This document shows positions 1,170 to 18,303 of a stretch of 18,342 bases of DNA, one piece after another. Positions within the stretch are counted from its first letter, which is position 1. The number at the start of each line of letters is the position of its first letter. Source of the DNA: a virus; UHGV virus genome UHGV-1773631. One strand, given 5' to 3'. The notes under the pieces are model-generated. The model was given only the letters and a program-made list of their open reading frames with translations. It made no database searches and was not told where the DNA came from. Made by a program: the position numbers and the translations under genes.

Positions 1170-2699
1170 TTAAAATGCGGAAGGTTCATCTTCCATAATA
1201 ATTTTTATATCTTCAATAGGAACTAAATCATAGTTCCATTTTGTAACAAATTGCGGCTGAATTCTACAAATACCTAAATCAGAAGCGCACCATAAATAAA
1301 CTCCTTTATAAGAACCTCTTCTGTTTTTATAAACTGAAATCTTTTTGTCAGGAATTTGAAAATTATTTGTAGACAAAATTGGCTTTAATGTTTCTAAATC
1401 CTCTTCTGTTACATCCAAAATAATTTCACCTATATCCACCTTATCTGCTAAGCTTTTTGCACCTCTTAACAAACTTTGGTCAGGAGTATCAGTATTGCGG
1501 AAATCACCTGAAAGTTGTGTTGCAGTAATAAGAAAAATGCCATACTCATTACAAATATCTTTAAGTCTAACACTTAACATAAAAAGAATATTATCTTCTC
1601 TTAATCTTACTCCACCACTTCGTCTTGTGACTTCTTCAAGAATTTTCATTGTACTTTGAATGTAATCAAAACAGACATAAGCTATATCATGTTCTCTAAT
1701 ATTTCTTTTAACAGTATTTTCTACATCCATTAAAGAATAATCAGGTAATAATTCTACCCAAATAGGTGATTCAGATAAAATTTTTCCTGCTTCAATAACT
1801 CGTTCTTCTTCTCCTGCTTTGTATTCACCTCTAAGAATATGGTCTTCATTTACCGCAGAAAGAAAAGCTAACATCATAGTTTGAATTTCTTCTTTATCTT
1901 GCTCAGTACCAATAAATAAAGTTGGCAAAGAAGCTCCATTTTTAATCCACATACCAAAATTAGTATCATAAATTTTATTACAAGCAAAATTACAAGCATC
2001 TGCAATTAAAGCTCTAGTTTTACCTGCACCAGTAGCAGCAGATCTAAGATACAATTTTCTAAGTCTTGCACCTCTAGTAACAGTATTAACCAGTCTCCCA
2101 TAAAGTGGAGCACCAACTTCAGGATTCTTTTTAAAATTTTCAATTAATTCTAAAATTCCTTCTCCTGCTTGGTATCCTCCAATAACATTATTGTCAATAT
2201 ATTTGACTTTAATATCATCAATTCGTTTATCAATAATATCAGCTATTTCAACAAGAGAAGTAGAATCCAGCCAGTCTTCTTGCTTTTGTTTCTTTTTTAA
2301 ATCTAAAATATTATTAGTATCATATAGAAAAGAAACATCTACTCCAAATTTATCATAAGCTCTTAATAAGGTAAATTTTTTTAATCGACTATAATAATAT
2401 TTGAAAGTATCTCTAGTAGCTAATTCCGCTGCTTTAGTTACATACTCTAAACCGCCGTTTGCTTTAAATACAGCTTCATATTTAGGTCTAACTGCCAAAT
2501 AATCAACAATAGTATCTAAAGTAATTGCCGATTTTGCTTCATGTATATTGTACATAGACCCAAAAATGATTTTATGAACTTCTTCTGTAAAATCTTCTTC
2601 AAAAATAGGAAATTCATCAGGTGCGTCTAAAATTGAATTATCATTAAAAACACAACCAATAACTTGAGCTACCGCTGTTAAATCTATATATTTACTCAT
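1170..2699 (-). CDS. replicative DNA helicase, DnaB-like
   Basis: 509 aa; DnaB N-terminal-domain-like start (LTAVAQVIGCVF...EDFTEEVHKIIFGSM), Walker A-like SAATGAGKT, Walker B-like CFDYIQS. Confidence 0.8.
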   Translation of the reverse strand: MSKYIDLTAVAQVIGCVFNDNSILDAPDEFPIFEEDFTEEVHKIIFGSMYNIHEAKSAITLDTIVDYLAVRPKYEAVFKANGGLEYVTKAAELATRDTFKYYYSRLKKFTLLRAYDKFGVDVSFLYDTNNILDLKKKQKQEDWLDSTSLVEIADIIDKRIDDIKVKYIDNNVIGGYQAGEGILELIENFKKNPEVGAPLYGRLVNTVTRGARLRKLYLRSAATGAGKTRALIADACNFACNKIYDTNFGMWIKNGASLPTLFIGTEQDKEEIQTMMLAFLSAVNEDHILRGEYKAGEEERVIEAGKILSESPIWVELLPDYSLMDVENTVKRNIREHDIAYVCFDYIQSTMKILEEVTRRSGGVRLREDNILFMLSVRLKDICNEYGIFLITATQLSGDFRNTDTPDQSLLRGAKSLADKVDIGEIILDVTEEDLETLKPILSTNNFQIPDKKISVYKNRRGSYKGVYLWCASDLGICRIQPQFVTKWNYDLVPIEDIKIIMEDEPSAF

Positions 2700-3231
2700 T
2701 CATATCTTCCTCCAAAAAAGTAAAAAATCTTTTCCTTTTTCTCATTGGCTCTCTTGTTTTAGGGGGAGTGATATGAATTTCTTCTGTAGGCAGAATAAAA
2801 TTTTCTATTTCTTTATTTTCATTTCTTTGCTGATTTTCCCAAATTGTATAATAATAATTTCTAGCATTTTCATACTGATAAGGGACAATTCCAATTCTGC
2901 CTTGAGCCTTTCCTAAATCTCCACCTTTTACTTCAAAATGGTATTTTAAAGTTTTTAAAATACCAGAATAAGTATAATGATTTTCATTTACATAGTCTTT
3001 AATTTGTTTATAAACTACTTTAGGAATTATATCATAATTAAAAAGTTGTTTAATATATTCTTCTAAAGCAATCCGGTTTTTTTCTTCTTCTGCAATATTT
3101 TGACTATATCTTTCATAACATAACTTATGTGCATATCTTCTTTTATTAGGAATTGGTATACATTCTTCTTTATCTCGGTCAAATGTACTTCCGCACACAA
3201 AACATTTTACTTTATGTGCAATTTTTATCAC
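2692..3231 (-). CDS. hypothetical zinc-finger protein
   Basis: 179 aa; N-terminal CxxC ... HKLC cluster (KCFVCGSTF...YAHKLCYERY), basic C-terminus; overlaps helicase start by 8 nt. Role not determinable from sequence. Confidence 0.45.
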   Translation of the reverse strand: MIKIAHKVKCFVCGSTFDRDKEECIPIPNKRRYAHKLCYERYSQNIAEEEKNRIALEEYIKQLFNYDIIPKVVYKQIKDYVNENHYTYSGILKTLKYHFEVKGGDLGKAQGRIGIVPYQYENARNYYYTIWENQQRNENKEIENFILPTEEIHITPPKTREPMRKRKRFFTFLEEDMNE

Positions 3232-4367: not shown

Positions 4368-5324
4368 TTAAAAATCATAATCATTCTTACTAGAATTAAC
4401 CGTAACCCCAGTTCCGCCACCAATAGCGTTATTATTTGCTTTATTCTGATAATCGAGCTGATTCTTCTTAATAGTTGCAAGAGCAATCTCTCGTGCTGCA
4501 ACATAATCCTGAAGCTCAGAAGCAAGAATAGTATCTTCACTATCCCACTCATAAGGAGTCTGCTGCGCCCAATTAACCACATAATCCTTATAAGACTGAG
4601 GAGTTTCTCTCACAATTGCTTCGCCAAAAGCAGACTCTTCCTCGATCTTCTTTACCACAGTCTGAGAAATAATCTTACCCTGAATACGAGTAAAAACTGG
4701 ATTCTTGGGACTTGCTTCCAGTCCTTCAAAATAATCCATCGCCGCAGGATTTACAGCAGTAAACTCAACAGGAAGCAGCGCCTTACGGAAATCAAAAACT
4801 GCACCCTTAATAACAACACGCTCAGGCTTACCTCTCTCATCATCTGCCTCATAACGCACACAATTATTAATCACAATATCTTCATTGAAAGTTGCACTCT
4901 TAGATTCATCAATTCCCTCTTCGGGGCAAACCTCAAGATGAATAAAACCACCTTCAAGGCGTCGATTACTTACCAGCTTTTCCATATCATTCTTATCATA
5001 AAATTCATTCAAAGCAATAGCAGTATCAATTCTTACATACGCCGCATTATCCTTGCCATTATCCATGACATTACCCAGATCATTATTCAAAATTCGCTCA
5101 AGAATATTATAAGTATCATTAGTACCACGAGCAGTAACCGCGGTTACATATCTAAAATGAACAGTAACAACATTCAGACACTTATTATCTGTTGCAATAT
5201 TAACATCACCACGAATATACTCAGTACCAGGATTCTTAGAAGCACTGCCAGAAACCTTCTTTTCAAGCTTGTGACTATGAACAAAACCATTCAAATGTAC
5301 TGCATTAATAAACTTCTTACTCAT
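4368..5324 (-). CDS. putative single-stranded DNA-binding protein (SSB-like)
   Basis: 318 aa; SSB-like N-terminus (MSKKFINAVHLNGFV), Gly/Asn-rich linker and acidic C-terminal tail ending ...NDYDF, reminiscent of the SSB DIPF tail; sits next to the Sak4-like gene. Good RBS AAAGGAGAAAATAATG. Confidence 0.5.
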   Translation of the reverse strand: MSKKFINAVHLNGFVHSHKLEKKVSGSASKNPGTEYIRGDVNIATDNKCLNVVTVHFRYVTAVTARGTNDTYNILERILNNDLGNVMDNGKDNAAYVRIDTAIALNEFYDKNDMEKLVSNRRLEGGFIHLEVCPEEGIDESKSATFNEDIVINNCVRYEADDERGKPERVVIKGAVFDFRKALLPVEFTAVNPAAMDYFEGLEASPKNPVFTRIQGKIISQTVVKKIEEESAFGEAIVRETPQSYKDYVVNWAQQTPYEWDSEDTILASELQDYVAAREIALATIKKNQLDYQNKANNNAIGGGTGVTVNSSKNDYDF

Positions 5325-5400: not shown

Positions 5401-5429
5401 ATTGTATAATATTTTTTTTAATTTTTCAA
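5401..5429 (-). promoter_or_regulatory. putative sigma70-like promoter for the SSB/Sak4 unit
   Basis: On the minus strand: TTGAAA (5429-5424), 17-nt spacer, TACAAT (5406-5401); the -35 lies in the last codons of the ThyX-like gene. Confidence 0.4.
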
Positions 5430-6077
5430 TTTACCGCAAGAATGCTTCTCGGTACATTTGCCGAAATATTGACATTTAGGAACAAATAAGTGATCTACCA
5501 AATATTTCCATTCTTCTGAGTAAATAGCAAGTGCTTTTTTTATATCCTGCATAACATTTTGATATTCCCAATAAGCACGTTTACACATTCTTTGATGGGA
5601 CATATCAACTAAATTCCGCAAATTAGTTCTTACTACTACTTTTGTTTCCATACCAAGAGGAAGCAAAAGACTAGCATCTTCAATCGGCATCCCCATATCA
5701 ACTAATACTTTATAATTCTGAGCAATCGACTGCATACTTTCTTCATATTTTTGTTTCATTTCTTTAGAAGTAAAAGAAGGAGAAACAAAAGAAAAAGAAT
5801 CATAGTTGATATAGCGAGTTGATGCCTGTAGTCGTGTGGGGCCACCTGAAATATGAGTATAAAATTCTCTCAAAGTTTTTGCGCTATATCCTTCAAGGAT
5901 CATATAAACTTGTGGAAATTCCATAACTCTTCCATGCCCAGATTCAATACATTCTTTAGCTCTTTTGATATTATTATCTTTATTTGTGATTTTTGCGTTC
6001 CAACATACTCCCGCTTCAACGCCGATAAGATGAAGAGGATTCTTAGTAGTTGCGGATTGGATAATAACTTTGCCCAA
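5418..6077 (-). CDS. thyX: ThyX-like protein (flavin-dependent thymidylate synthase family, divergent)
   Basis: 219 aa; by-eye alignment to canonical ThyX: SGHGRVMEF vs SGHFSVLEH, YTHISGGPTRLQASTRY vs RHRxxxxxxxSQRY, NLVDMSHQRMCKRAYWEYQ vs the ThyX C-terminal helix. The RHR motif reads THI here and the C-terminus carries a Cys cluster (CQYFGKCTEKHSCGK). Confidence 0.65.
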   Translation of the reverse strand: MGKVIIQSATTKNPLHLIGVEAGVCWNAKITNKDNNIKRAKECIESGHGRVMEFPQVYMILEGYSAKTLREFYTHISGGPTRLQASTRYINYDSFSFVSPSFTSKEMKQKYEESMQSIAQNYKVLVDMGMPIEDASLLLPLGMETKVVVRTNLRNLVDMSHQRMCKRAYWEYQNVMQDIKKALAIYSEEWKYLVDHLFVPKCQYFGKCTEKHSCGKLKN

Positions 6078-6102
6078 TTTTATTACACCTCTTTAAGAGA
6101 AA

Positions 6103-6128
6103 TAAAAGGAGGACAAAAGTCCTCCTTT
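6103..6128 (-). terminator. putative intrinsic terminator hairpin
   Basis: Perfect 11-bp inverted repeat AAAAGGAGGAC / GTCCTCCTTTT with loop AAAA; on the minus strand followed by ATTTCTCTT. Lies between the 88-aa ORF and the ThyX-like gene. Confidence 0.45.
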
Positions 6129-6139
6129 TACATTAATTA

Positions 6140-6406
6140 TCAATCATCAATATCGTCAGGGGTAAAGTTCATACCTTCCTCTGTCAACTGAAGCAGTTTA
6201 ATAGCCTTATGAGTACCATCAGGTAGCTCAACCTCAGCGGAAACACGAATACCATAACCCTTACGCTGAATAGCGGAAGTAAAAATACCATCGACCTGAC
6301 GCTTCTCCAAACCCAGTGCGCCAGCCACATCAGCACTCGTCATATCAGTACCAGCGTTATTCTTCAAATACTCAAAAACCTTCTTAGAATTGTCGGACAT
6401 TGCCAT
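6140..6406 (-). CDS. hypothetical small protein, possible helix-turn-helix DNA-binding protein
   Basis: 88 aa; segment MTSADVAGALGLEKRQVDG resembles an HTH/winged-helix recognition region; acidic C-terminus; has its own strong promoter upstream. Confidence 0.4.
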   Translation of the reverse strand: MAMSDNSKKVFEYLKNNAGTDMTSADVAGALGLEKRQVDGIFTSAIQRKGYGIRVSAEVELPDGTHKAIKLLQLTEEGMNFTPDDIDD

Positions 6407-6502
6407 AATTAATTATCTCCTTTTATTTAAATATTTTTTTAATTTATATAATAATCTATGAGTATTATTTCTTTCATAGTTATTAACTTAATTTATGTAT
6501 AT

Positions 6503-6531
6503 ATTATATCAAAAAAATTTTAATTTTTCAA
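6503..6531 (-). promoter_or_regulatory. putative promoter with extended -10
   Basis: Minus strand: TTGAAA (6531-6526), 17-nt spacer, TGATATAAT (6511-6503). Drives the 88-aa ORF. Confidence 0.5.
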
Positions 6532-6729
6532 ATTCTTTTGAATAATTTCATCAATTTCTGCCATAACTTCAAAGCCTTGACCGTGCGGCAACCGCATAAT
6601 CATTTCTGTTAATTGCATAATACGCTTTTCAGCCTTAGCAATTTGATCTTGACTACTGTCTCCATCATTATGGATTTTTTCTAATGCAGTCATTTCAGAT
6701 GCAATTTTTTTAATTTGTTTTTTTGTCAT
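6520..6729 (-). CDS. hypothetical protein (69 aa, predicted helical/coiled-coil)
   Basis: ORF from the track with RBS-like AAGGTTAAGGAAAAAATAATG; no recognisable domain. Confidence 0.35.
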   Translation of the reverse strand: MTKKQIKKIASEMTALEKIHNDGDSSQDQIAKAEKRIMQLTEMIMRLPHGQGFEVMAEIDEIIQKNLKN

Positions 6730-6754
6730 TATTTTTTCCTTAACCTTTATTGTA

Positions 6755-6775
6755 TTTATATTATATTATATTTTT
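6755..6775 (-). promoter_or_regulatory. possible -10 region (tandem TATAAT) upstream of the 69-aa ORF
   Basis: Minus strand AAATATAATATAATATAAATAC about 30 nt upstream of the ATG; the -35 would fall inside the ligase coding end. Confidence 0.3.
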
Positions 6776-6784
6776 TTAAAAAAA

Positions 6785-7882
6785 TCAAGAAAAAATTTCT
6801 TCTATTAAACAATCTTTTGCTGGTTTATCTTCTCTGATTTTAATAAAATGAGGATGCCGCAGAGTGTGTTCATTTTTATCAATTTGCATACAATCAATAC
6901 TGACAACATGATTTAAAAATTCTTCTGGATTTTTAAGAATTAGATTTTTATCTTCATCTGTTAAGCCAGAAGAAACTGTTCCAATTTTAACTAATTTTCC
7001 TGTATTGTCATAGGCTCCTACCTCTAGTGCAGTTTTCCAACCAAAAAAATAAGGTTTAGTAATAGGAGTATAGTTGTCTTTATCTTTAATCCAGTTTATA
7101 TAATAACGTCCTTCTTGCAAACCATCAGGAGTTTCCCAATACTCCCATGTCTCTAAATCTTTTCCTGTATATTTTTTGGTAGCAGGACAAAAACCAATAC
7201 AGACTAAATCCACACTATCTGTACGTTTAATTTTAATAGTAGACCAAGCAGGACGTTTATCAGGATAATACGGCAAATTTTTCTTTTTTAAAACAAGTCC
7301 TTCTCCGCCCACTTTTAAAATAATATCAAGACGTTCTTGAATTTTTGTATCAAAAGCAAAAGCCAATTTAAGAAAATTAAACTGACCCAAATAATGTTTA
7401 TCCCAAATTGCTTTTAAAATTTTATACCTATCCCAAGCAGGACAATTAACTAAATTACATCCATCATATTGAATAATATCATGGATATAATAATGAATAA
7501 GGTTATTCTTTTGTCTTTTGATTGCGGTAGCCGGCAAACACCCCATAATAGTTGTTACTTCTTTTGAAGTTTTTCCTGGATAAAAAATTTCTCCAATTAA
7601 AGTAGTATTAGGAGGAAGACAACTATCTAAAGCCTTCATAATATGAGGGACATTTTCACCCTTTTCAGAATAATATCCAGTTGTTTTAGAAATATTTCTA
7701 CTAAAAAGATAGGAATAATGTTCTGTTTTTTCATACTGATACCAATAACCATCAATTTTTTCTTCAGCAAAATACTCTTTAGAATTTAAAATTTCTGGAA
7801 GTTTATATGCTTCCATATCAGAAGGAATTTTCCAGATTTTCATTGGCGGAATCATTTTAGCTTCTGGATACAATAATATCAC
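6785..7882 (-). CDS. ATP-dependent DNA ligase
   Basis: 365 aa; motif I KIDGYW (KxDG with the adenylated lysine), motif IV-like EGLVLK, motif V-like DLVCIGF, C-terminal motif VI-like LRHPHFIKIREDKPAKDC. Start overlaps the topoisomerase A gene by 4 nt. Confidence 0.75.
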   Translation of the reverse strand: MILLYPEAKMIPPMKIWKIPSDMEAYKLPEILNSKEYFAEEKIDGYWYQYEKTEHYSYLFSRNISKTTGYYSEKGENVPHIMKALDSCLPPNTTLIGEIFYPGKTSKEVTTIMGCLPATAIKRQKNNLIHYYIHDIIQYDGCNLVNCPAWDRYKILKAIWDKHYLGQFNFLKLAFAFDTKIQERLDIILKVGGEGLVLKKKNLPYYPDKRPAWSTIKIKRTDSVDLVCIGFCPATKKYTGKDLETWEYWETPDGLQEGRYYINWIKDKDNYTPITKPYFFGWKTALEVGAYDNTGKLVKIGTVSSGLTDEDKNLILKNPEEFLNHVVSIDCMQIDKNEHTLRHPHFIKIREDKPAKDCLIEEIFS

Positions 7883-10254
7883 TCCTCAATTTTAGATACC
7901 GAATTTATCTTATTATTATTCTTAATAATTTTTACCCCTTGTGCGACTTTACTTCCTAATGTCAATTCTTTTGCTGAAATTTTAATAGTAGATTTATCTC
8001 CCACAATCAATAAATTATTACTATTATTAATTAAACAACAGCCCGCAATGATTCCTCGATAGCCATAAGTGCCTCTTCCACCTCTTTTTTGCAATACAAA
8101 TTCTTTTAATAAAACTTGTTTGCCATTGCCATCTTCACTAATAAAAGCTAGATTATTTTTATTATTTGTAACTGGTAAACAGGTAAATACACTATCTCCT
8201 TCGCGCAAATTAATTCCTTTTACTCCTTGCGCAATCCGAGAAGAAATTGGCATATCTTTTGAATCAAAATGTAAAACAGTGCCATTCTTGGTAATTAATA
8301 ACATTGTCTCTTCTTCAATAAAAGTTACAGCTCTAAGTGCATCATTTTCTTTTAAAGAGATTGCCACAACACCTGTATTTCTTTTAGTATTATTAAATTC
8401 CTCTAAAGCAACCTTTTTAATAATACCATTCTTAGTTACAAAAAAAACATACTTTGCATTTGTTCCTTGATGTAAAGAAGCAAAAGCCATAGGAAATTCA
8501 TTTTTATCAAACTTAATTAAAGTATTTAAATTACTTCCTTTGGAAGAATTAGTCCCTTCTGGGATATTGTTCACCAGCAAACGATACATTTTCCCCTTAG
8601 AAGAAAAAACCATTAAAGTATCAATAGTATTAGTATCACAAATATAAGAAATAATATCATCATTATTTTTAATACCTACACCATTGCGCTTTTGTGTTTT
8701 ATAATTTTTGCTAGGAATGCGTTTAATATTACCAGATTTAGTAATAGATACAACACAATTTTCAGGGACAATATCAGGGACTATTGTTTCAATATTATTA
8801 TCTTCTAAGTTTAATAGTTTAGTTCTTCTCTTATCTCCATATTTATCTTTTAATTCAGTAATAATATTAATTAAAGTATTATCGCGAATTTCTTTATTGG
8901 TTAAAATACCAATACAATATTCAATAAACTTCTTTTTATCTTCCAATTCTTGAATTAATTCATTTTTGTTAATTTTGCTTAATTTGCCGAGTTTCATGTC
9001 TAAAACTGCATTTGCCTGAATTTCATCAATAGAAAGAAAAGCCATCAAACCTTCTTTTGCCATTTGATTATTTTCAGATTGCTTAATAATTTTAATTACT
9101 TCATCAATTTTATCTACCGCGGCGATAAGACCTTCCAAAATATGAACTCTAGCTTCTGCTTTCTCTTTGTCAAAAGTAGTAGAATTAATTAACATGTTTT
9201 CTTGATGTAAAACATAATTCTTAATTAAATCTAACATAGAACAAAGTTTAGGAGTACCATTAACAATAAAGTTCATATTATAAGAAAGGGTAGTCTGCAA
9301 ATCAGTTAATTTAAATAATCTATTTAAAGCAATTTGTGAATTTACGTTTTTCTTAACGTAAAAGATTAACTTGTTTTGTCCAACATTGGATTCATCGTCA
9401 AAATCCTCAATTACTTCTGCCAAAACATCTACATTTTTTTCAATCTGTTCTTTAATTTTATTTCGATAGGTTCTATAAGGAATAGTAGTAAAGATAATTT
9501 TATTATCTTTAATCTCATAATCTCCTTGAATCTTTAAAGAAACAGAAGAATGACCAGTATTAAAAGCAGTATAAATATCTTTGATATTAATAATAGTACC
9601 ACCTAATGGAAAATCTGGCCCAGGTAAATATTTAAGCAGATCGTTAGTATTGGAAATTTTTTTCTGAATAAACGCGATTGCAGTTTCACATACTTCTGTC
9701 AAATTGTGTGGGCTACTATTATGGCTCATAGACACACCAATAGCCTGTCTACCATTGCAAATTGCGTTAGGAAAAAGTGAAGGAAGAATAACTGGTTCCA
9801 TAAATTCACCATTATACGTCTCTTTTGTTGGGACAATATTCTTTTTAAAATCCTTCATCATCAAATCTGCATAAATACTAGGTTTAGCTTCTGTATATCT
9901 AGCAGAAGCCACCATATCATTATTCTCTTGCGTACCCAATGAACCCTGTCCCGCAATTAGAGGATACCGCATAAGATAATCCTGAGACATTTTACATAAA
10001 ACTCCATAGCAACTAGCATCACCATGAAAATAGCTAGTTGCTAATGTACTTCCCACGATAGCGTTACACTTTTTTGTTTTACTTTTGTTATTCATTTTAA
10101 GATAATCTTCCATAGTCCAAAGAATTTTTCTTTGCGCGGAAAGAAGACCATCTTCAATTGAAGGAATAGCTCTATCTGTCAAAACTTCTGAACTATAAGT
10201 TAAAAAGTTTTCTTTGGCTTCATCAAGAATATCAACTTCTGTAATTAAACTCAT
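7879..10254 (-). CDS. type II DNA topoisomerase, A subunit (GyrA/ParC-like)
   Basis: 791 aa; N-terminus AIPSIEDGLLSAQRKILW matches the GyrA winged-helix start; GDASCYGVLCKMSQDYLMRYPLIAGQGSLG and ARYTEAK match the catalytic-tyrosine region (RYTE); C-terminal region has a GyrA-box-like QKRGGRG. Confidence 0.85.
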   Translation of the reverse strand: MSLITEVDILDEAKENFLTYSSEVLTDRAIPSIEDGLLSAQRKILWTMEDYLKMNNKSKTKKCNAIVGSTLATSYFHGDASCYGVLCKMSQDYLMRYPLIAGQGSLGTQENNDMVASARYTEAKPSIYADLMMKDFKKNIVPTKETYNGEFMEPVILPSLFPNAICNGRQAIGVSMSHNSSPHNLTEVCETAIAFIQKKISNTNDLLKYLPGPDFPLGGTIINIKDIYTAFNTGHSSVSLKIQGDYEIKDNKIIFTTIPYRTYRNKIKEQIEKNVDVLAEVIEDFDDESNVGQNKLIFYVKKNVNSQIALNRLFKLTDLQTTLSYNMNFIVNGTPKLCSMLDLIKNYVLHQENMLINSTTFDKEKAEARVHILEGLIAAVDKIDEVIKIIKQSENNQMAKEGLMAFLSIDEIQANAVLDMKLGKLSKINKNELIQELEDKKKFIEYCIGILTNKEIRDNTLINIITELKDKYGDKRRTKLLNLEDNNIETIVPDIVPENCVVSITKSGNIKRIPSKNYKTQKRNGVGIKNNDDIISYICDTNTIDTLMVFSSKGKMYRLLVNNIPEGTNSSKGSNLNTLIKFDKNEFPMAFASLHQGTNAKYVFFVTKNGIIKKVALEEFNNTKRNTGVVAISLKENDALRAVTFIEEETMLLITKNGTVLHFDSKDMPISSRIAQGVKGINLREGDSVFTCLPVTNNKNNLAFISEDGNGKQVLLKEFVLQKRGGRGTYGYRGIIAGCCLINNSNNLLIVGDKSTIKISAKELTLGSKVAQGVKIIKNNNKINSVSKIEE

Positions 10255-10266
10255 TCTTTTCCTCCT

Positions 10267-12147
10267 TTAATCAAAAGTAAAACCAAGCTCAGTAGCGTTT
10301 TCATAAATATATTGTTTGCGGGGTTCTACTTTAACTCCCATTAAAATTTCAAGTAATTCATCTGCTTTTTCTGCATCACTAATAGTAATTCTTTTATAGC
10401 GTTCTTGCTCAAAGCAGACTTTCTGAAGATCACGTGCATTTAACTCGCCCAAACCCTTCGCTCTTACTAGCTCATAAGTGCCTTGATGCTGAGTTTTCCA
10501 CTCTTCAAGTTCTTCATCAGTATAAGCATAGTATTCATTATTCTTCTGACGAATAATGTACAAAGGAGTAACTGCTCTATAAAGCTTTCCTGCTTCGACT
10601 AAAGGCCGCATATAAGTAAAAAAGAATGTAGTTAAAAGTAACTCAATACTAGCTCCATCAGAATCTGCATCCGAAGTAATTACGATTTTATCAAATTGCA
10701 TTTTATCTATATCAAAAGTTTTATCAAAACCTCCACCAATTACTTTAATAATATCGGAGATTTCTTGATTAGCAAGAATCTTTTCAACAGATTGTTTTCT
10801 AGGGCTAATAGTTTTGCCTTTTAACATATAAATACAATCTGTTTTGGGATTCCGTGCTTCAACGGCAGAAGATCCTGCGCTTAGACCCTCGACTAACAGT
10901 AAATTACGCTGGCTTGGATGTTTATTTGTGCAATCAATAAATTTATTACTTAAAGCAACTTTAGCTTTAAGACCAGTTTCTTTTTTGCCCTTATCTCTAA
11001 CAGCTTCTCTAGCTTTTCGAGCTGCTTCTCTAGCTTTTCGAGCATTAATCGCCTTATCCGCGATTTTCTTTATTTCTTTTTCATTTGCTTCAAACCAATA
11101 CTGTAATTCTTGTGCAATAATTCCTGCGAAAGGGTGCATATCAATTTTAACAATTCTACTTTTGGTCTGAGCGTCATAAGCTATACCAGGAGCGGTAATA
11201 TTAAACACTAAATATAATCCTTCTTGGCAATCATCACCGGATAAATTACTATCCTTTTCTTTCAGCCAACCTTTATCTCTAAAAAACTTATTCATTTCTC
11301 TTGTTAGAATAGTTTTAATTTGAGTAATGTGCGGGCCAGTGTCAGTAAGTCCTGTATTAACATAAGGAACAATAGTAGAAAAATATTTATCAGTATAAGT
11401 TAATACTAAATTTAATTCATTCTTATTATCTTTAAAATCAATTTTAAGTCTATTTTTAATAATTTCGCTATTTTTGTCTACAGTAGAATCAACCAAATCA
11501 GTTAATCCATTCTTAGAGAAAAAAGTTTTTTCATTTAAAGTAATAGTTAAACCTGGACATAAACAAACTAAAACTTCAAAAAGATTATTAATAATTTTTA
11601 AATCTACTTCTGGGTGAGTAAAAAATTCTTCACTCGCTTGCCAAGTAACAACAGTACCAGATTCTTTATCATTTTTTACTTTACCAGTTTTGCGGTTTTT
11701 GAAAATTCCTTCTTCAAAAGAAACTTCTTCAAAGTTTCCTTTTTGATAACTAAGTACCTTTGTCCAATGACTTAAAAATACAACTAACTTACTGCCGATT
11801 CCGTTTAGACCTAACGCGGTACCTTCATAAACACCATCTTCAGTATATTTACCAGAGGTGTTAAGCACACTAAAAGCAGCTTCAAGAATTGTTTTTCCAT
11901 CTTCTCTAGTGGAATTAATTAAAAAACCTTGCCCATTATCTTTAACTGTAATTACATTATTATCTGAAATAGTTACATTAATTTCAGTGCAATGACCTGC
12001 TTTAAACTCATCAACTGCATTAGAAACAATCTCAATTAATAGCTGAGTTGAATATTCAGTAGAACCAACATATACTCCAGGTCTAAGTCTTGTAAATTCT
12101 AACGGAGTAAGACTTTGAATTGAATCTTTATTATATAAATTATTCAC
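10267..12147 (-). CDS. type II DNA topoisomerase, B subunit (GyrB/ParE-like ATPase plus TOPRIM)
   Basis: 626 aa; LEFTRLRPGVYVGST, EIVSNAVDE and DNGQG (GHKL ATPase N-box/G1), TOPRIM-like EGLSAGSSAVEAR and ITSDADSDG. Contains a duplicated AREAARKAREAVR segment. Confidence 0.85.
   Translation of the reverse strand: MNNLYNKDSIQSLTPLEFTRLRPGVYVGSTEYSTQLLIEIVSNAVDEFKAGHCTEINVTISDNNVITVKDNGQGFLINSTREDGKTILEAAFSVLNTSGKYTEDGVYEGTALGLNGIGSKLVVFLSHWTKVLSYQKGNFEEVSFEEGIFKNRKTGKVKNDKESGTVVTWQASEEFFTHPEVDLKIINNLFEVLVCLCPGLTITLNEKTFFSKNGLTDLVDSTVDKNSEIIKNRLKIDFKDNKNELNLVLTYTDKYFSTIVPYVNTGLTDTGPHITQIKTILTREMNKFFRDKGWLKEKDSNLSGDDCQEGLYLVFNITAPGIAYDAQTKSRIVKIDMHPFAGIIAQELQYWFEANEKEIKKIADKAINARKAREAARKAREAVRDKGKKETGLKAKVALSNKFIDCTNKHPSQRNLLLVEGLSAGSSAVEARNPKTDCIYMLKGKTISPRKQSVEKILANQEISDIIKVIGGGFDKTFDIDKMQFDKIVITSDADSDGASIELLLTTFFFTYMRPLVEAGKLYRAVTPLYIIRQKNNEYYAYTDEELEEWKTQHQGTYELVRAKGLGELNARDLQKVCFEQERYKRITISDAEKADELLEILMGVKVEPRKQYIYENATELGFTFD
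10965..11006. repeat. tandem direct duplication (2 x about 21 bp) inside the topoisomerase B gene
   Basis: GCTTCTCTAGCTTTTCGAGC occurs at 10965-10984 and again at 10986-11005; in frame, it encodes the duplicated AREAARKAREA peptide. Confidence 0.6.
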
Positions 12148-12791: not shown

Positions 12792-13133
12792 TCAAATCGG
12801 TCCAAAAACGTCCGGTTCATCGGAAGAAGTGGGCGTTTGTGGCGTCAGATTATTCATCACAGTTTCATATTTTATGCCATTTTTAGTATTCTCACGAGTG
12901 GCTTTATTGTAATAAAAAGCTTGACTAACTGCATAAGCAGCCCAAGGTAAACTGGCTTCCGCAGCCAACCAAGGCAAAGAGCCAGTAAATCCTTCGTGAA
13001 TGCAATAAAATGCTAGAATAATATGAGCAAGAGAATGAACCCATATTAAAGCAGATTCTTGAGCTAAAAGGACTTTTGAAAATTCTTTTTTCTTTTTTCT
13101 TTTGTTTCTATTTTTTTTAACGAAGCTTATCAT
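12792..13133 (-). CDS. putative holin-like small membrane protein
   Basis: 113 aa; two hydrophobic helix-length segments (ALIWVHSLAHIILAFYCI and SLPWLAAEASLPWAAYAVSQAFYY), highly basic N-terminus, overlaps the 3' end of the endolysin gene by 17 nt. Assignment rests on position and topology only. Confidence 0.4.
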   Translation of the reverse strand: MISFVKKNRNKRKKKKEFSKVLLAQESALIWVHSLAHIILAFYCIHEGFTGSLPWLAAEASLPWAAYAVSQAFYYNKATRENTKNGIKYETVMNNLTPQTPTSSDEPDVFGPI

Positions 13134-13905
13134 ACAATCTCTTCATTATAGTGACGCCTTCTAGTCTGGTTAAAAACTTATTAGGCATTAATTTGCCAGT
13201 TTCGTCACCTTTAATTAGTCCCATAGAAACTGCCCAATTTAATTCATCTTTGCCCCAATCAGCATTTTGCTTAGCTAATTGAACTAAATAATTATTCATC
13301 ATTTCATTAAATTTTTCTTGAGTCATATCTTCATCCTCCTCTTGTTTAATTGTAGGTTTATTATTATTTGTTTTAGGTTTTTCAATTATAAAGTAATATT
13401 TTACCTGTTGTTTGAAAAGACTATAATTACCTCTAGTGCGTGCGGTTTTTGTGCTGTTAGGGTCATTAATATAAATAGTGTTTCCTTGAATATTCCACAC
13501 TAAAATGAAATGACCACTACTTGTCCATAATCCTTTGCCCATACAAGCTATAACTAAATTACCTTTATCAATTTCAGCTTTTGCTAAATTATGATATTTA
13601 CTAGAACTATTACCATAAATATTTGCACCATTCAACATATAGGCTGTTAAACCGTATCGTGCAGCAGCAGGCTTAAAATATCCATAATAAGTTCCTTGGT
13701 GAGGGGCTTTATAACCATGTGTTAAAGCCCAAGCACATTCAGTTTTTGGAGTAACTTTTTTATCTGCCCATGTAGCTAAAACCATAGACATTGCGGTGGG
13801 GCCACACCCAGAAGCGCCGATTGTAGTTGATTCACCTTTTGCTGAATAGCTAATATTTTTCCATCTTGCGTCTGTTTGTAGATAAGATACAGGCTGTGTA
13901 TTCAT
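13117..13905 (-). CDS. endolysin: papain-like cysteine peptidase (C39-like) with C-terminal SLH-like cell-wall-binding domain
   Basis: N-terminal half has a Cys...His pair in a C39-like context (GASGCGPTAMSMVL ... SGHFILVW); C-terminal WAVSMGLIKGDETGKLMPNKFLTRLEGVTIMKRL matches the SLH consensus. Start placed at the second ATG (13905; RBS AAAGGAGA about 7 nt upstream); the track ORF begins 6 nt earlier at 13911. Confidence 0.65.
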   Translation of the reverse strand: MNTQPVSYLQTDARWKNISYSAKGESTTIGASGCGPTAMSMVLATWADKKVTPKTECAWALTHGYKAPHQGTYYGYFKPAAARYGLTAYMLNGANIYGNSSSKYHNLAKAEIDKGNLVIACMGKGLWTSSGHFILVWNIQGNTIYINDPNSTKTARTRGNYSLFKQQVKYYFIIEKPKTNNNKPTIKQEEDEDMTQEKFNEMMNNYLVQLAKQNADWGKDELNWAVSMGLIKGDETGKLMPNKFLTRLEGVTIMKRLYDKLR

Positions 13906-13933
13906 ATACATTCTCCTTTCTTTTGTTTTAAAA

Positions 13934-13970: not shown

Positions 13971-15242
13971 TTAAATTAATTCTGCAAGTTCTGTTATTTT
14001 AGATCTATGGATATTATTTAAAGTTACTTCTCCATAAATATCAGAACCTCTAAAAATTTTAGACATTCTTCTCATACCATTGTTATTACCAGAATAAGCT
14101 AATGAGTCAACTTGCGTTTTAGCATCACCATCAATAATACAAATACAATCTTCACCAATACGTTGAAGAGCTAATTTAATTAAAGTTCTATCTAAATTTT
14201 GTGCTTCTGTTATATAAATACCTGCGTTCATTCCGCTAGTATCGTAACCTCTAATATCGCTAAAAGGCAATAAAACTAATTTATCTTCTTCCATCATACG
14301 AAGAACACCTTCTTTACCGCCTAATTTGGCGGAAAGCATATTACCAATTTGCGAGTCAAGTAATTTATCGTCTTTTGTACCTGGGTAAAACCCTAATTTA
14401 GCGGAATTAATAGTTGCCACTGTATTACAAAAGATTATAATTTTATCTATTCTATTTTTTTCTAACATATACATTAAAAAAGCTAGAGAAATGTAAGATT
14501 TTCCTACTCCTGCTGGGCCTTGTAGCAAAGTAATTTTATTATTAGCTAAACTATCAAAAGCGCATTTTTGATATATATCTCCTTGATATGGTTGTACTTT
14601 TCCAAACCAGGTAGAATCAAAAGTAGGAAATTTTAAATAACGATAAGTTTCTCCTGTCCAAACCCGCACATCTATAAGTTCATCAAAATTATCAGGATTT
14701 TTTAAAAGTAGATATTCTCCTTTTTTAAGATTAAAATGATTATAGTTAGGATTTTCATAAAATTCAGAAATTAATTCTTCACTAGCAGTAATTTCTGCAA
14801 TTCCACTATAAGTATCTAAATCTTCTTCAATAGAAGAAACATTTTCTTTGGGAAACAAACATAAAGCAATATGTTTTAAACTTAAATCATTAGTTATAAA
14901 TTCTAAACATTTATTTGTTTCAAATTCATTCCAAGCATCAGACAAAATTCTAGCATCATCATTAATATCAAAATTCATTTTATCTAAAATGTATTCATAA
15001 TTTGTTTGATGAATTTTAACAGAATAATTATTTGGATATTTTTCAAATAAATGAAGCAAAAGTCTTGCGGAATATTTTATATCAGAATCTTTATTTGCCG
15101 CAGTTTTAATTCTTTCTAACTCTTTTAAAGTAATAGAAGAAATGATAAATTTTTCATTATCTTCAAAAGCTGATTCTCCGGCTAATAAAAGACTACAAGT
15201 ATCGTAGAATTTAATAATAATTTCCACTCTCCTATTGTTCAA
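13971..15242 (-). CDS. PIN-domain / PhoH-like ATPase fusion (PhoH2-like)
   Basis: 423 aa; N-terminal PIN-like acidic motif (IIKFYDTCSLLLAG), Walker A LLQGPAGVGKSY, PhoH-type IIDGDAKTQVD and NNIHRSKITELAE. Confidence 0.8.
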   Translation of the reverse strand: MNNRRVEIIIKFYDTCSLLLAGESAFEDNEKFIISSITLKELERIKTAANKDSDIKYSARLLLHLFEKYPNNYSVKIHQTNYEYILDKMNFDINDDARILSDAWNEFETNKCLEFITNDLSLKHIALCLFPKENVSSIEEDLDTYSGIAEITASEELISEFYENPNYNHFNLKKGEYLLLKNPDNFDELIDVRVWTGETYRYLKFPTFDSTWFGKVQPYQGDIYQKCAFDSLANNKITLLQGPAGVGKSYISLAFLMYMLEKNRIDKIIIFCNTVATINSAKLGFYPGTKDDKLLDSQIGNMLSAKLGGKEGVLRMMEEDKLVLLPFSDIRGYDTSGMNAGIYITEAQNLDRTLIKLALQRIGEDCICIIDGDAKTQVDSLAYSGNNNGMRRMSKIFRGSDIYGEVTLNNIHRSKITELAELI

Positions 15243-15861: not shown

Positions 15862-16407
15862 TTATTGTTTAATTTTGTTTTTAATATCCTTAATAATTGA
15901 ATCAATAGAAACAGGAAAATTATTATGAGCATCCAATTCTACATGATAAATAAGACCTTTATCCCAATCCGCAAAAGCGTCCTGACTATGAGAGTGTCCG
16001 CACATACTAATCATTCTTGCTTTAAGAGGTTTCTCATTATCAAAATTACTACAAAGTGTAGGATAATGGCTTAAATAAAAATGATATTTACCATATCTTA
16101 GAAATTGACCTTCAGTTACTTTAATAATATTGTTACAATTATTATATAAATTTACACGAACTTCACTATCATGGTTTCCTCTAATTACATAAATTTGTCC
16201 TTTTAACTGTTTAATTTTTTCAATTCCTGCTTCATTATCATTTAGCATTAAATCGCCAAGCACATAAATTTTATCATTAGGACGAATAATTTTATTCCAA
16301 TTTTCAATAATTGCGTTATCATGTTCTTGAATATTCTTAAACCCTCTTGGTTCATAAAGAAAGGGCTTATTATGGCCTAGATGAAGATCACTGGTAAACC
16401 AAACCAT
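15862..16407 (-). CDS. calcineurin-like metallophosphoesterase
   Basis: 181 aa; metal-binding motifs DLHLGH, VLGD, RGNHD and GHSH characteristic of binuclear metallophosphoesterases; begins 2 nt after the stop of the upstream kinase gene. Confidence 0.75.
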   Translation of the reverse strand: MVWFTSDLHLGHNKPFLYEPRGFKNIQEHDNAIIENWNKIIRPNDKIYVLGDLMLNDNEAGIEKIKQLKGQIYVIRGNHDSEVRVNLYNNCNNIIKVTEGQFLRYGKYHFYLSHYPTLCSNFDNEKPLKARMISMCGHSHSQDAFADWDKGLIYHVELDAHNNFPVSIDSIIKDIKNKIKQ

Positions 16408-16409
16408 TA

Positions 16410-16922
16410 TTACACCTCCTCAGTATAATGTAAAATAGTATTCACATTATGAAAACCCCAATCAAGATATTTATTCATCTCATCTTTAGAAGGAATAGAA
16501 GATTTAAAATAAAAATTTTTTATTGCTTCTTCTGGAACTTTAGCGAAACCTTCTCTTTCAGAATTTCTTCTTAAAGCAACATCTAAAAGAATAGGAAAAT
16601 AATCAAAAGTAAGATTAATATTATTCTTATCTTTCAGATTAAAAAAATTGTTTAAAAGTTTAGCTCTTGAAGAAACATCAATATGAGTTGCATCTATATA
16701 AATATTTTCTACATTTTCTTTAATTGCAATTCTAATATTTGCAATCATTTCTTTATATACCTGTTTTTCTTTACTAAAATAATTTTTTCCAGGATTTTCG
16801 CCTATATAATTCTTGCGGATTTCATCTCTTGAAATAATTTTACCATTCTGTTGTTTTGCCCAAGTAGATTTGCCGGAAGCAGGAATACCACAAAGAATAT
16901 GCAAATTAATCATAAATACCAA
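16410..16922 (-). CDS. P-loop kinase, polynucleotide kinase (T4 Pnk)-like
   Basis: 170 aa; Walker A GIPASGKSTWA followed by SRDEIR, paralleling T4 Pnk kinase GCPGSGKSTWA ... NRDDYR. Confidence 0.6.
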   Translation of the reverse strand: MVFMINLHILCGIPASGKSTWAKQQNGKIISRDEIRKNYIGENPGKNYFSKEKQVYKEMIANIRIAIKENVENIYIDATHIDVSSRAKLLNNFFNLKDKNNINLTFDYFPILLDVALRRNSEREGFAKVPEEAIKNFYFKSSIPSKDEMNKYLDWGFHNVNTILHYTEEV

Positions 16923-17199
16923 ACTCCTTTACATAAGAAATACTATTTTGTGCTTCTTCTTTAAAAAGACCTTCTTCAAAATCTAGTTTAAAATTATATG
17001 CTTCTTCATCGTTTCTACATTCTACCATATTAACAGTTTCTTTACAATGAGGGCAATACATAACTTTCTTATGCCCAACTTCTCTAAAACGTCCTCTTAA
17101 TCGAGGAATTGACATTGACTTCTTTCCGCAATTCATACAATAAAAATCGTGCATTTCATATTTTCTAGGGTCTTTAGACATTTTTATCAAACTCCTCAA
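16906..17199 (-). CDS. hypothetical zinc-ribbon protein
   Basis: 97 aa; two CxxC pairs (CMNCGKK ... CPHCKE). Function unknown. Confidence 0.4.
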   Translation of the reverse strand: MRSLIKMSKDPRKYEMHDFYCMNCGKKSMSIPRLRGRFREVGHKKVMYCPHCKETVNMVECRNDEEAYNFKLDFEEGLFKEEAQNSISYVKEFGIYD

Positions 17200-17578
17200 T
17201 TTGTTTTTTTACAATTTCAAAATATTCTTTAAGTTCTTTTCTTTCTTTTTCTGTATTTATTTTTTTAATTTCTGTCTTTTTCCAAATTTTATATTTTAAC
17301 ATTTCTACATAATTTGTAAAAATAATACGTATATTATTGTCTGTTAAATATTTTCGTGTAGAGAAAGGCTTTGAAAAAACAACCGAATATTTTTGTAGTT
17401 CATAATTTTCTGGACTTAAATTATAGAAAGAAATAAATTCTTTTAATTTTAAAACTACATATTTATGTTTCCTTACAATTTTACAATCTAGTTTATATTC
17501 ATCATAATCATATATAAAACAACCTAAAATTATTACTCCAGTAAAAGGTAATGTTAATCCTAGTATTAATAGTACCAT
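17174..17578 (-). CDS. hypothetical membrane protein
   Basis: 134 aa; N-terminal hydrophobic segment MVLLILGLTLPFTGVIILGCFIY, then a Lys/Glu-rich soluble region. Confidence 0.4.
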   Translation of the reverse strand: MVLLILGLTLPFTGVIILGCFIYDYDEYKLDCKIVRKHKYVVLKLKEFISFYNLSPENYELQKYSVVFSKPFSTRKYLTDNNIRIIFTNYVEMLKYKIWKKTEIKKINTEKERKELKEYFEIVKKQIEEFDKNV

Positions 17579-17580
17579 AA

Positions 17581-18303
17581 TTATTCTCCTTGAGCAGAAA
17601 AGATATGTTCATCAAAAGTATCTAAATCAAAAAGGATAATTTGCTTACTCCAATGAGTACCTAAATCAAGATTAACCTTTTGATTATTATTATACCAACA
17701 AGCTCCACCTTCATATTTGGGAGGATTGCGAAATTCTCCTATATCTTCTATCATTAGAGGAATTGGGGTATGGCCATGAATAATTAATTCATTTGGATTA
17801 ATTAAACATCTAAATTTATAATGTAATCTATTCCAAAGAAAATCAAATTCATCACCAGAAATATTATTAGGAGAAAAACCTGCATGACTTAAATGAATTT
17901 TAATTCCATTTTTATTAGTGTATTGTTCATAAACTGGAAGTTTATTAATTAAATTTAAATACTCAATAACATTTTTTTCTTTAGACCAGTCTAGTAAAGT
18001 AGATAAACCTCCATTATTCATGTGACGATAAATATCATCTCCATATAGACATCTTTCATTTTTTAAAAATTCTCTTCCAGAATCTACTAACATTTGTTCA
18101 TGATTTCCTTTAAGAAGAGTAAATCTTTCATCTTTTAAAATTTCTTTAAGTATTTTCCAACCTTCTGTCCCTCTGTCAATTACATCACCCAGCACGAACA
18201 CTTTATCTTCTGCTTGAATGAAATTTTTAATCTGCTTAAACAAATTTGAATTACCATGAAGGTCAGTAAAACAATAAACTTTACCCTTATTCATAAACAT
18301 CAA
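17581..18303 (-). CDS. Ser/Thr protein phosphatase, PPP family (lambda phosphatase-like)
   Basis: 240 aa; canonical PPP motifs in order: DLHG (CFTDLHGN), GDVIDRG, GNHE. RBS AAAGGAA upstream. Confidence 0.8.
   Translation of the reverse strand: MMFMNKGKVYCFTDLHGNSNLFKQIKNFIQAEDKVFVLGDVIDRGTEGWKILKEILKDERFTLLKGNHEQMLVDSGREFLKNERCLYGDDIYRHMNNGGLSTLLDWSKEKNVIEYLNLINKLPVYEQYTNKNGIKIHLSHAGFSPNNISGDEFDFLWNRLHYKFRCLINPNELIIHGHTPIPLMIEDIGEFRNPPKYEGGACWYNNNQKVNLDLGTHWSKQIILFDLDTFDEHIFSAQGE

Follow-up and report, generated by a model that had tools for sequence, protein, structure and literature searches.

Antibacterial drug development has ThyX among its targets; the RHR motif is regarded as the hallmark of this enzyme family and as essential to the binding of both flavin and dUMP. 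The 18,342-nucleotide stretch of virus genome UHGV-1773631 analysed here (the window) contains a thyX-like gene whose product carries Thr-His-Ile in place of this motif. Such a gene raises the question of whether its product still makes thymidylate, with the work of the missing arginines done from elsewhere in the protein, or whether it has turned to another chemistry or lost activity altogether. The last two possibilities had been put forward in a preliminary description of this DNA, and below we weigh them against the fold, conservation and gene context of the protein.

The gene and the fold of its product

The preliminary description had placed the gene on the correct open reading frame (ORF) and overlooked that it lies on the minus strand (Table 1). 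The N-terminus of the 219-residue ORF, MGKVIIQ, agrees with those of homologs in the alignment, which backs the TTG start call. The upstream neighbour is an 88-aa ORF. The interval from the terminator-like hairpin to the TTG contained no strong sigma-70-like promoter; the position of this hairpin directly upstream of the ThyX gene suggests that the gene may start its own transcription unit.

Table 1. Coordinates of the ThyX gene, its sequence features and two neighbouring genes (positions in the window).
Feature	Position	Strand	Basis or remark
ThyX-family (Thy1 fold) gene, 219 aa, TTG start	5418..6077	minus	ORF call, Pfam, PHROG, model
Shine-Dalgarno sequence AAAGAGGTG, 8 nt 5' of the TTG start	6086..6094	minus	read from the sequence
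Intrinsic-terminator-like hairpin, perfect 13-bp stem and T-run	6102..6131	minus	between the 88-aa ORF and the ThyX gene
H-G-R, residues 48-50; H48 = T. maritima H53	5928..5936	minus	alignments
ThyX motif region, residues 73-89, YTHISGGPTRLQASTRY	5811..5861	minus	sequence; HMMER alignment to T. maritima
R-M-C-K-R-A-Y-W-E, residues 163-171; R163 = T. maritima R174 (uracil-binding); C165, first ligand in the putative Cys4 site	5565..5591	minus	alignments
Cys triad C-QYFGK-C-TEKHS-C (C-x5-C-x5-C), residues 202-214	5436..5474	minus	alignments
SPbeta YorF homolog (PF27337)	4368-5324	minus	precomputed annotation of the sister contig
SPbeta YorH homolog (PF26927)	2692-3231	minus	precomputed annotation of the sister contig

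The only Pfam match of the protein is Thy1 (PF02511; E=6e-35, 121 bits against a cutoff of 24.8), and its PHROG match is PHROG 85, annotated as thymidylate synthase; the ThyA-family domain Thymidylat_synt (PF00303) gave no match in the Pfam scan. Against the NCBIfam thyX equivalog model TIGR02170 the protein scored 70.5 bits, below the cutoff of 87.9. An AlphaFold2 monomer model built from 38 homologs (pLDDT 88.5, pTM 0.86) was matched by Foldseek to T. maritima ThyX over its full length (8reo/1o26; TM 0.75, E=1e-10), and the best PDB matches of the model were all T. maritima ThyX structures, at 17-18% identity. These observations establish a ThyX-fold protein, far beyond chance, and bear out the likeness to ThyX that had been seen by eye. 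With the T. maritima enzyme (ThyX/FDTS, TM0449; 1O26, 8REO) the protein presumably also has homotetrameric flavin-mediated methylene transfer in common. It has the fold, the other catalytic residues and the gene context of a ThyX, and lacks the literal RHR motif and a TIGR02170 score above the cutoff.

Arginines of the ThyX motif

Within residues 73-86 (YTHISGGPTRLQAS) the protein reads T-H-I-X9-S where ThyX has R-H-R-X7-S. When a 38-sequence profile was aligned with PDB sequences using HMMER, T74/H75/I76 fell on T. maritima R78/H79/R80 and S86-T-R88-Y89 on S88-G-R90-Y91. Between these segments T. maritima shows a gap of two residues; the motif loop, in which R82 lies, is longer than that of the T. 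maritima enzyme by these two residues. The same alignment places S136 at T. maritima R147, an arginine that is also lost, and T55 and Q75 of T. maritima are replaced by R50 and E71. The by-eye alignment in the preliminary description was therefore unshifted, and its account of the motif (RHR replaced by THI, both arginines substituted, two residues inserted) agrees with the HMMER result.

Nine residues that are invariant in the clade (H48, E53, S86, R88, Y89, E133, N152, R154 and R163) align with T. maritima H53, E58, S88, R90, Y91, E144, N163, R165 and R174, respectively, and R167 stands at the position of H178. The clade has in addition gained invariant arginines at positions 50, 70 and 82, of which R50 occupies the Ser/Thr position that hydrogen-bonds the FAD phosphates in canonical enzymes (Mtb S71, Hp S50). 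An hhalign comparison of the clade profile with T. maritima covered only the C-terminal half; for the N-terminal part, the equivalences come from MAFFT and from residue spacing relative to the conserved H48 and E53. The C-terminal 120 residues of the T. maritima probe sequence agree with the PDB alignments.

The variant motif is both widespread and strictly kept. A word-indexed search matched 5614 homologs, and Y-T-H-[IV]-...-[RK]-[LIM]-Q-x-S-[TS]-R is retained in all 120 of the close homologs listed (57-99% identity), while 119 of the 120 keep the four cysteines described below. An exhaustive HMMER search of 1.84 billion cluster representatives returned 2194 relatives at E<=1e-3. The 38-homolog alignment, whose sequences are 57-63% identical to the window protein, contains 55 invariant columns, including five cysteines. 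THI-type ThyX was found in at least 249 GTDB species genomes, mostly of Lachnospiraceae, with Acetatifactor muris, Lachnospira multipara, L. pectinoschiza and [Clostridium] aminophilum as cultured carriers and Stecheria also represented, and on at least 481 IMG/VR viral contigs, many of them 60-190 kb long. Recognisable viral copies combine T-H-[ILV], R82 and C165 in 68 of 68 cases, with the Cys triad as well in 67 of the 68. We accordingly assign the protein to a large ThyX subfamily of Clostridia/Lachnospiraceae and their phages. A literature search of incomplete coverage returned no published description of an RHR-less ThyX, which is weak evidence of absence.

This distribution bears on the first of the earlier proposals, that of a catalytically dead ThyX paralog kept for a structural or regulatory role through nucleotide or flavin binding only. 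The substitutions do remove two residues that were reported to be necessary in M. tuberculosis ThyX by mutagenesis (cited in PMC2386288). However, a motif retained in 120 of 120 homologs and spread over so many species genomes and viral contigs is not that of a decayed paralog. The 55 invariant columns include all of the other catalytic residues, homologs number in the thousands, and the gene, chromosomal in Lachnospiraceae, holds its place upstream of folA (30 of 81 bacterial loci) and is repeatedly retained in phage replication modules. We consider an inactive paralog highly improbable.

In canonical enzymes the RHR motif hydrogen-bonds the AMP phosphate, the ribityl and the FMN phosphate of FAD, its first arginine also touches the isoalloxazine and dUMP, and a Ser from the neighbouring subunit, two residues after a conserved His (Mtb S71, Hp S50), binds the FAD phosphates (PMC6514825). 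R78, which is directed towards flavin N1/C2=O, has a stabilising effect on FADH-, and the E86 backbone and S88 side chain hold the same flavin edge (PMC11940539). We aligned 80 full-length representatives and relatives and distinguished three states, every one with the signature of four cysteines (Cys4) treated below. State A, the canonical one, has S50, Q71, R74-H-R76, an aromatic residue at 82 and R136. State B, that of the window protein and its clade, has R50, R70, E71, T74-H-I76 and R/K82, and no R136. State C is intermediate (P0135, P0137, P0156, P0159, P0190 and the fecal phage MT835469, L082 10001-10675; 38-47% identical to the window protein): it shares R50, R70, E71 and the loss of R76 and R136 with state B, and differs from it in keeping R74, as R74-H-[IVC]76, and in bearing a non-basic Y, F, W, V or G at 82.

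A basic residue stands at exactly one of positions 74 and 82 in 66 of 70 relatives, at neither in four and at both in none. On a neighbour-joining (NJ) tree built without the variable columns the switch occurred about nine times, and a sequence inside the canonical clade, P0269, has an independent T-H-R with K82. Positions 74 and 82 are thus under a recurrent either/or constraint. Summed over positions 50, 70, 74, 76, 82 and 136, the number of basic residues is three in 17 of 18 RHR-type and 40 of 44 THx-type sequences. The remaining block of changes (S50R, R70, Q71E and loss of R76 and R136) is essentially one change, in 2-3 steps on the NJ tree, with R50 co-varying with the loss of R76. As roughly one historical event, it constitutes no independent or statistical proof of compensation, and the Fisher tests on covariation treat the sequences as unrelated (phylogeny-uncorrected). 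Statistical weight therefore attaches only to the recurrent 74/82 swap, while the block is suggestive because R50 falls exactly on the phosphate-binding Ser position.

Position 82 lies two residues before the E86 equivalent, in the loop round the flavin pyrimidine edge, and this location together with the either/or pattern makes it the simplest reading that R82 does the job of R78. Most likely, the hallmark arginines of the window protein have moved elsewhere rather than been lost. In the arrangement we propose, Thr replaces the first RHR arginine, which contacts flavin N1/C2=O and dUMP, and the charge would be given by R82 of the longer loop, the loop whose backbone binds the flavin pyrimidine edge. 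Ile replaces the second arginine, which serves the FAD phosphates and ribityl, and R50 would compensate from the neighbouring-subunit Ser/Thr position; the R147 equivalent is lost and R70 gained, for which we infer a corresponding spatial role. The nearness of R82 and R50 to the flavin is deduced here from their positions in the sequence. The counterpart of an RHR arginine pair, which the preliminary description had asked to be looked for, would thus be there in an unexpected form: the alignment is unchanged, and basic residues would be supplied by R82, R50 and R70. An arginine that toggles between two positions offers a natural experiment on how reduced flavin and nucleotide are held.

Four conserved cysteines

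The C-terminal cysteine cluster reported earlier is present and conserved (residues 202-216, CQYFGKCTEKHSCGK), and is accompanied by a fourth invariant cysteine that had been missed, C165, two residues after R163 (the R174 equivalent). C165, C202, C208 and C214, together with G206 and E210, are invariant in the 38-homolog alignment. The complete pattern occurs in 63 of 75 representatives, and the four cysteines are gained or lost together, which argues for one putative metal site; their closeness to each other is likewise judged from sequence position.

The Cys4 signature extends to enzymes with a canonical motif. It is borne by a Desulfovibrio phage ThyX with RHR, by 109 of 119 relatives of the canonical representative P0240 (carriers include Hippea maritima, Deferribacterales, Synergistetes, Coprothermobacter and DPANN and Asgard archaea), and by the ThyX of Pyrococcus abyssi, P. 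furiosus, P. horikoshii and Thermococcus, in the form R-L-C-E-R-A-Q-W-E ... C-x5-C-x9-C. The P. abyssi bait sequence matched the protein P0408 at 99% identity, and all later comparisons relied on P0408 alone. These Pyrococcus-type proteins (P. abyssi P0408, P. furiosus P0410 and the relatives from Hippea and others) have R-x-C-x-R/K-A-Q/Y-W-E and a Cys triad with conserved Gly and Glu in common with the window protein, and most of the relatives also have its C25 (Cys in Hippea, Ser in Pyrococcus). They differ from it in their canonical S50, Q71, R-H-R-X7-S and R136 and in a tail of the form C-x3-6-C-x5-9-C. T. maritima ThyX, in contrast, is without all four cysteines. We refer to the carriers as the Cys4-type ThyX lineage, a grouping defined in this analysis and not a published family. 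The phage/Lachnospiraceae clade derives from the Cys4 Pyrococcus-type lineage, and the Cys4 site arose before the arginines were rewired, and independently of that change.

In Hippea maritima (CP002606, L085 3710-5675), the canonical-RHR Cys4 thyX overlaps the end of a GIDA-family gene by 20 nt. The product of the latter, at 436 aa, has the size of TrmFO, and two flavin/folate-dependent uracil methylases may share an operon there.

Carriers of the Cys4 signature are almost all strict anaerobes, which, with the absence of CxxC knuckles, is compatible with an Fe-S cluster; structural zinc is equally possible. No paper on a ThyX metal site, Fe-S or other, was found in a literature search of incomplete coverage, again weak evidence of absence. 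A redox-active Fe-S cluster near the flavin, combined with the relocated arginines, would make the protein a true thymidylate synthase adapted to anaerobes, with a redox half-reaction unlike that of textbook ThyX. The cluster could pass electrons from ferredoxin or flavodoxin to the flavin, or the enzyme could otherwise depart from the NADPH/FAD/H4folate stoichiometry, its rewired site having altered the flavin (FMN vs FAD), the reductant or the folate product. The occurrence of Cys4 in anaerobes and phages (Lachnospiraceae, Thermococcales, Hippea, Deferribacterales, Synergistetes, DPANN/Asgard and the Desulfovibrio phage) is consistent with this proposal, as are the lack of the CxxC knuckles typical of Zn ribbons and the location of C165, two residues from catalytic R163 and two from the H178 position, which in T. 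maritima we take to be an FAD-contacting residue. In addition, binding of the FAD phosphates and stabilisation of FADH- are tasks of the very arginines that were lost (PMC6514825, PMC11940539). On the other hand, T. maritima is also an anaerobe and manages without the cysteines, the site is older than the rewiring to which the proposal couples it, and a structural Zn site is the simpler reading. We regard a redox variant of this kind as unlikely; if true, thymidylate synthesis would have a third mechanistic variety, and it would occur in major gut Firmicutes, Thermococcales and hundreds of phages. More generally, the conserved Cys4 site could turn out to be a structural or redox element that some twenty years of research on ThyX have passed over.

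Gene neighbourhood and predicted role

In one bacterial MAG, a THI-type thyX lies among ordinary chromosomal genes. A DHFR gene (PF00186, E=8e-49) sits directly downstream of thyX on the same strand, 21-134 nt away, in the 30 of 81 bacterial loci mentioned above, and a dCMP deaminase gene (PF00383) is found 1.2-2 kb downstream in 7 of the 81. With E. coli ThyA as probe, we found no ThyA homolog within +/-8 kb of thyX in the bacterial loci. With dUMP produced by dCMP deaminase and DHFR acting in the folate cycle, such a neighbourhood is what one would expect around a working thymidylate synthase. The pairing of thyA with folA is the arrangement of many Firmicutes, and ThyA resembles the THI-type protein in predicted net role (dTMP synthesis) and in being encoded upstream of folA, although the two are unrelated in fold and mechanism and have no sequence similarity. 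Canonical ThyX chemistry yields H4folate and hence does not require tight linkage of thyX to folA, so the linkage could hint at something different. It is a point in favour of the redox variant, in which H2folate as product would explain the folA operon; however, DHFR also serves folate synthesis and salvage, which makes the linkage undiagnostic.

In the virus the gene forms part of a replication module, the window encoding DnaB, YorH-like and YorF-like proteins, Sak4/AAA_24, an ATP-dependent ligase, GyrA, GyrB, RNase H and PhoH. The phage is SPbeta-like and about 138 kb in size; a sister contig, whose ThyX is 99% identical to that of the window, goes on with RecJ, a helicase and PolIII-alpha.

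We think it likely that the protein is a functional flavin-dependent thymidylate synthase with relocated arginines and an inherited putative Cys4 metal site, encoded by an auxiliary phage gene for dTMP supply. It would turn dUMP and CH2-H4folate into dTMP, and by keeping thyX in its replication module the phage would increase its supply of dTMP. C165, C202, C208 and C214 would form a metal site (Zn or Fe-S) inherited from an older ThyX lineage, mostly of anaerobes. For the phage itself, this would be an ordinary auxiliary gene of nucleotide metabolism.

The second earlier proposal was that of a ThyX-fold enzyme with changed substrate or chemistry. Such an enzyme might, for example, methylate or hydroxymethylate another pyrimidine nucleotide, a nucleoside or the uracil of a nucleic acid, or it might feed phage DNA modification. 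ThyX homologs that act on other substrates exist, polyoxin PolB being a precedent, and the window protein has substitutions at three arginines with which canonical enzymes keep flavin and dUMP phosphate in place, an invariant Glu (E71) in place of Q75, and a TIGR02170 score below the equivalog cutoff. Against a change of substrate, the uracil- and deoxyribose-proximal S86, R88, Y89 and R163 are invariant, the basic residues appear relocated and not lost, and the bacterial orthologs stand in a folA/dCMP-deaminase context of dUMP supply and folate recycling. Moreover, we found no modification genes in the window, nor, in the sister contig, in the 10 kb to each side. Altered chemistry or a link to nucleotide modification, as suggested earlier, is therefore unsupported and a poor fit with the dTMP/folate context, and we judge it quite unlikely.

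A THI-type ThyX does occur near probable modification genes in one other large phage (IMGVR_UViG_3300045988_139151; L115, module at 5962-11010), which encodes a T4-type beta-glucosyltransferase (PF09198), a divergent ThyA-family protein (299 aa, catalytic Cys kept) and a dUTPase 1.2-4 kb from ThyX. The module is probably one of DNA modification by hydroxymethyl-pyrimidine glucosylation. The arrangement is like that of T4, whose ThyA-family hydroxymethylase acts on one pyrimidine while dTMP comes from a separate enzyme; by this division of labour the ThyA-family enzyme is the likelier modifier, and ThyX would be left as the dTMP synthase.

A large natural clade, found in abundant gut Lachnospiraceae and hundreds of their phages, lacks both RHR arginines. 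If its members are thymidylate synthases, annotation that relies on the motif or on equivalog models can miss real thymidylate synthases, and inhibitors built on the canonical pocket may fail against gut commensals.

Several other features of the window deserve mention. The YorF and YorH assignments in Table 1 come from the sister contig: neither ORF had a family in our own Pfam scan, and in PHROGs the YorF homolog had no match and the YorH homolog only phrog_4680, a family of unknown function. These homologs tie the 30%-GC phage to SPbeta-like replication modules. The PIN-PhoH gene is intact in the window (13971-15242, 423 aa), whereas in the sister contig (L084 1-2090) it is split by a 314-aa LAGLIDADG homing-endonuclease ORF, a difference between near-identical phages that points to a polymorphic mobile intron or intein. 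Inside the replication module, a gene on the minus strand (13117-13911) encodes a Peptidase_C39-like cysteine protease fused to an S-layer-homology (SLH) domain; the product may be a cell-wall-directed enzyme and hints at an S-layer host. Finally, at 15862-18303 on the minus strand, an AAA_33 kinase-like protein and a small Cys-rich ORF lie between two calcineurin-like phosphoesterases, a gene set that may represent a repair module of the polynucleotide kinase/phosphatase type.
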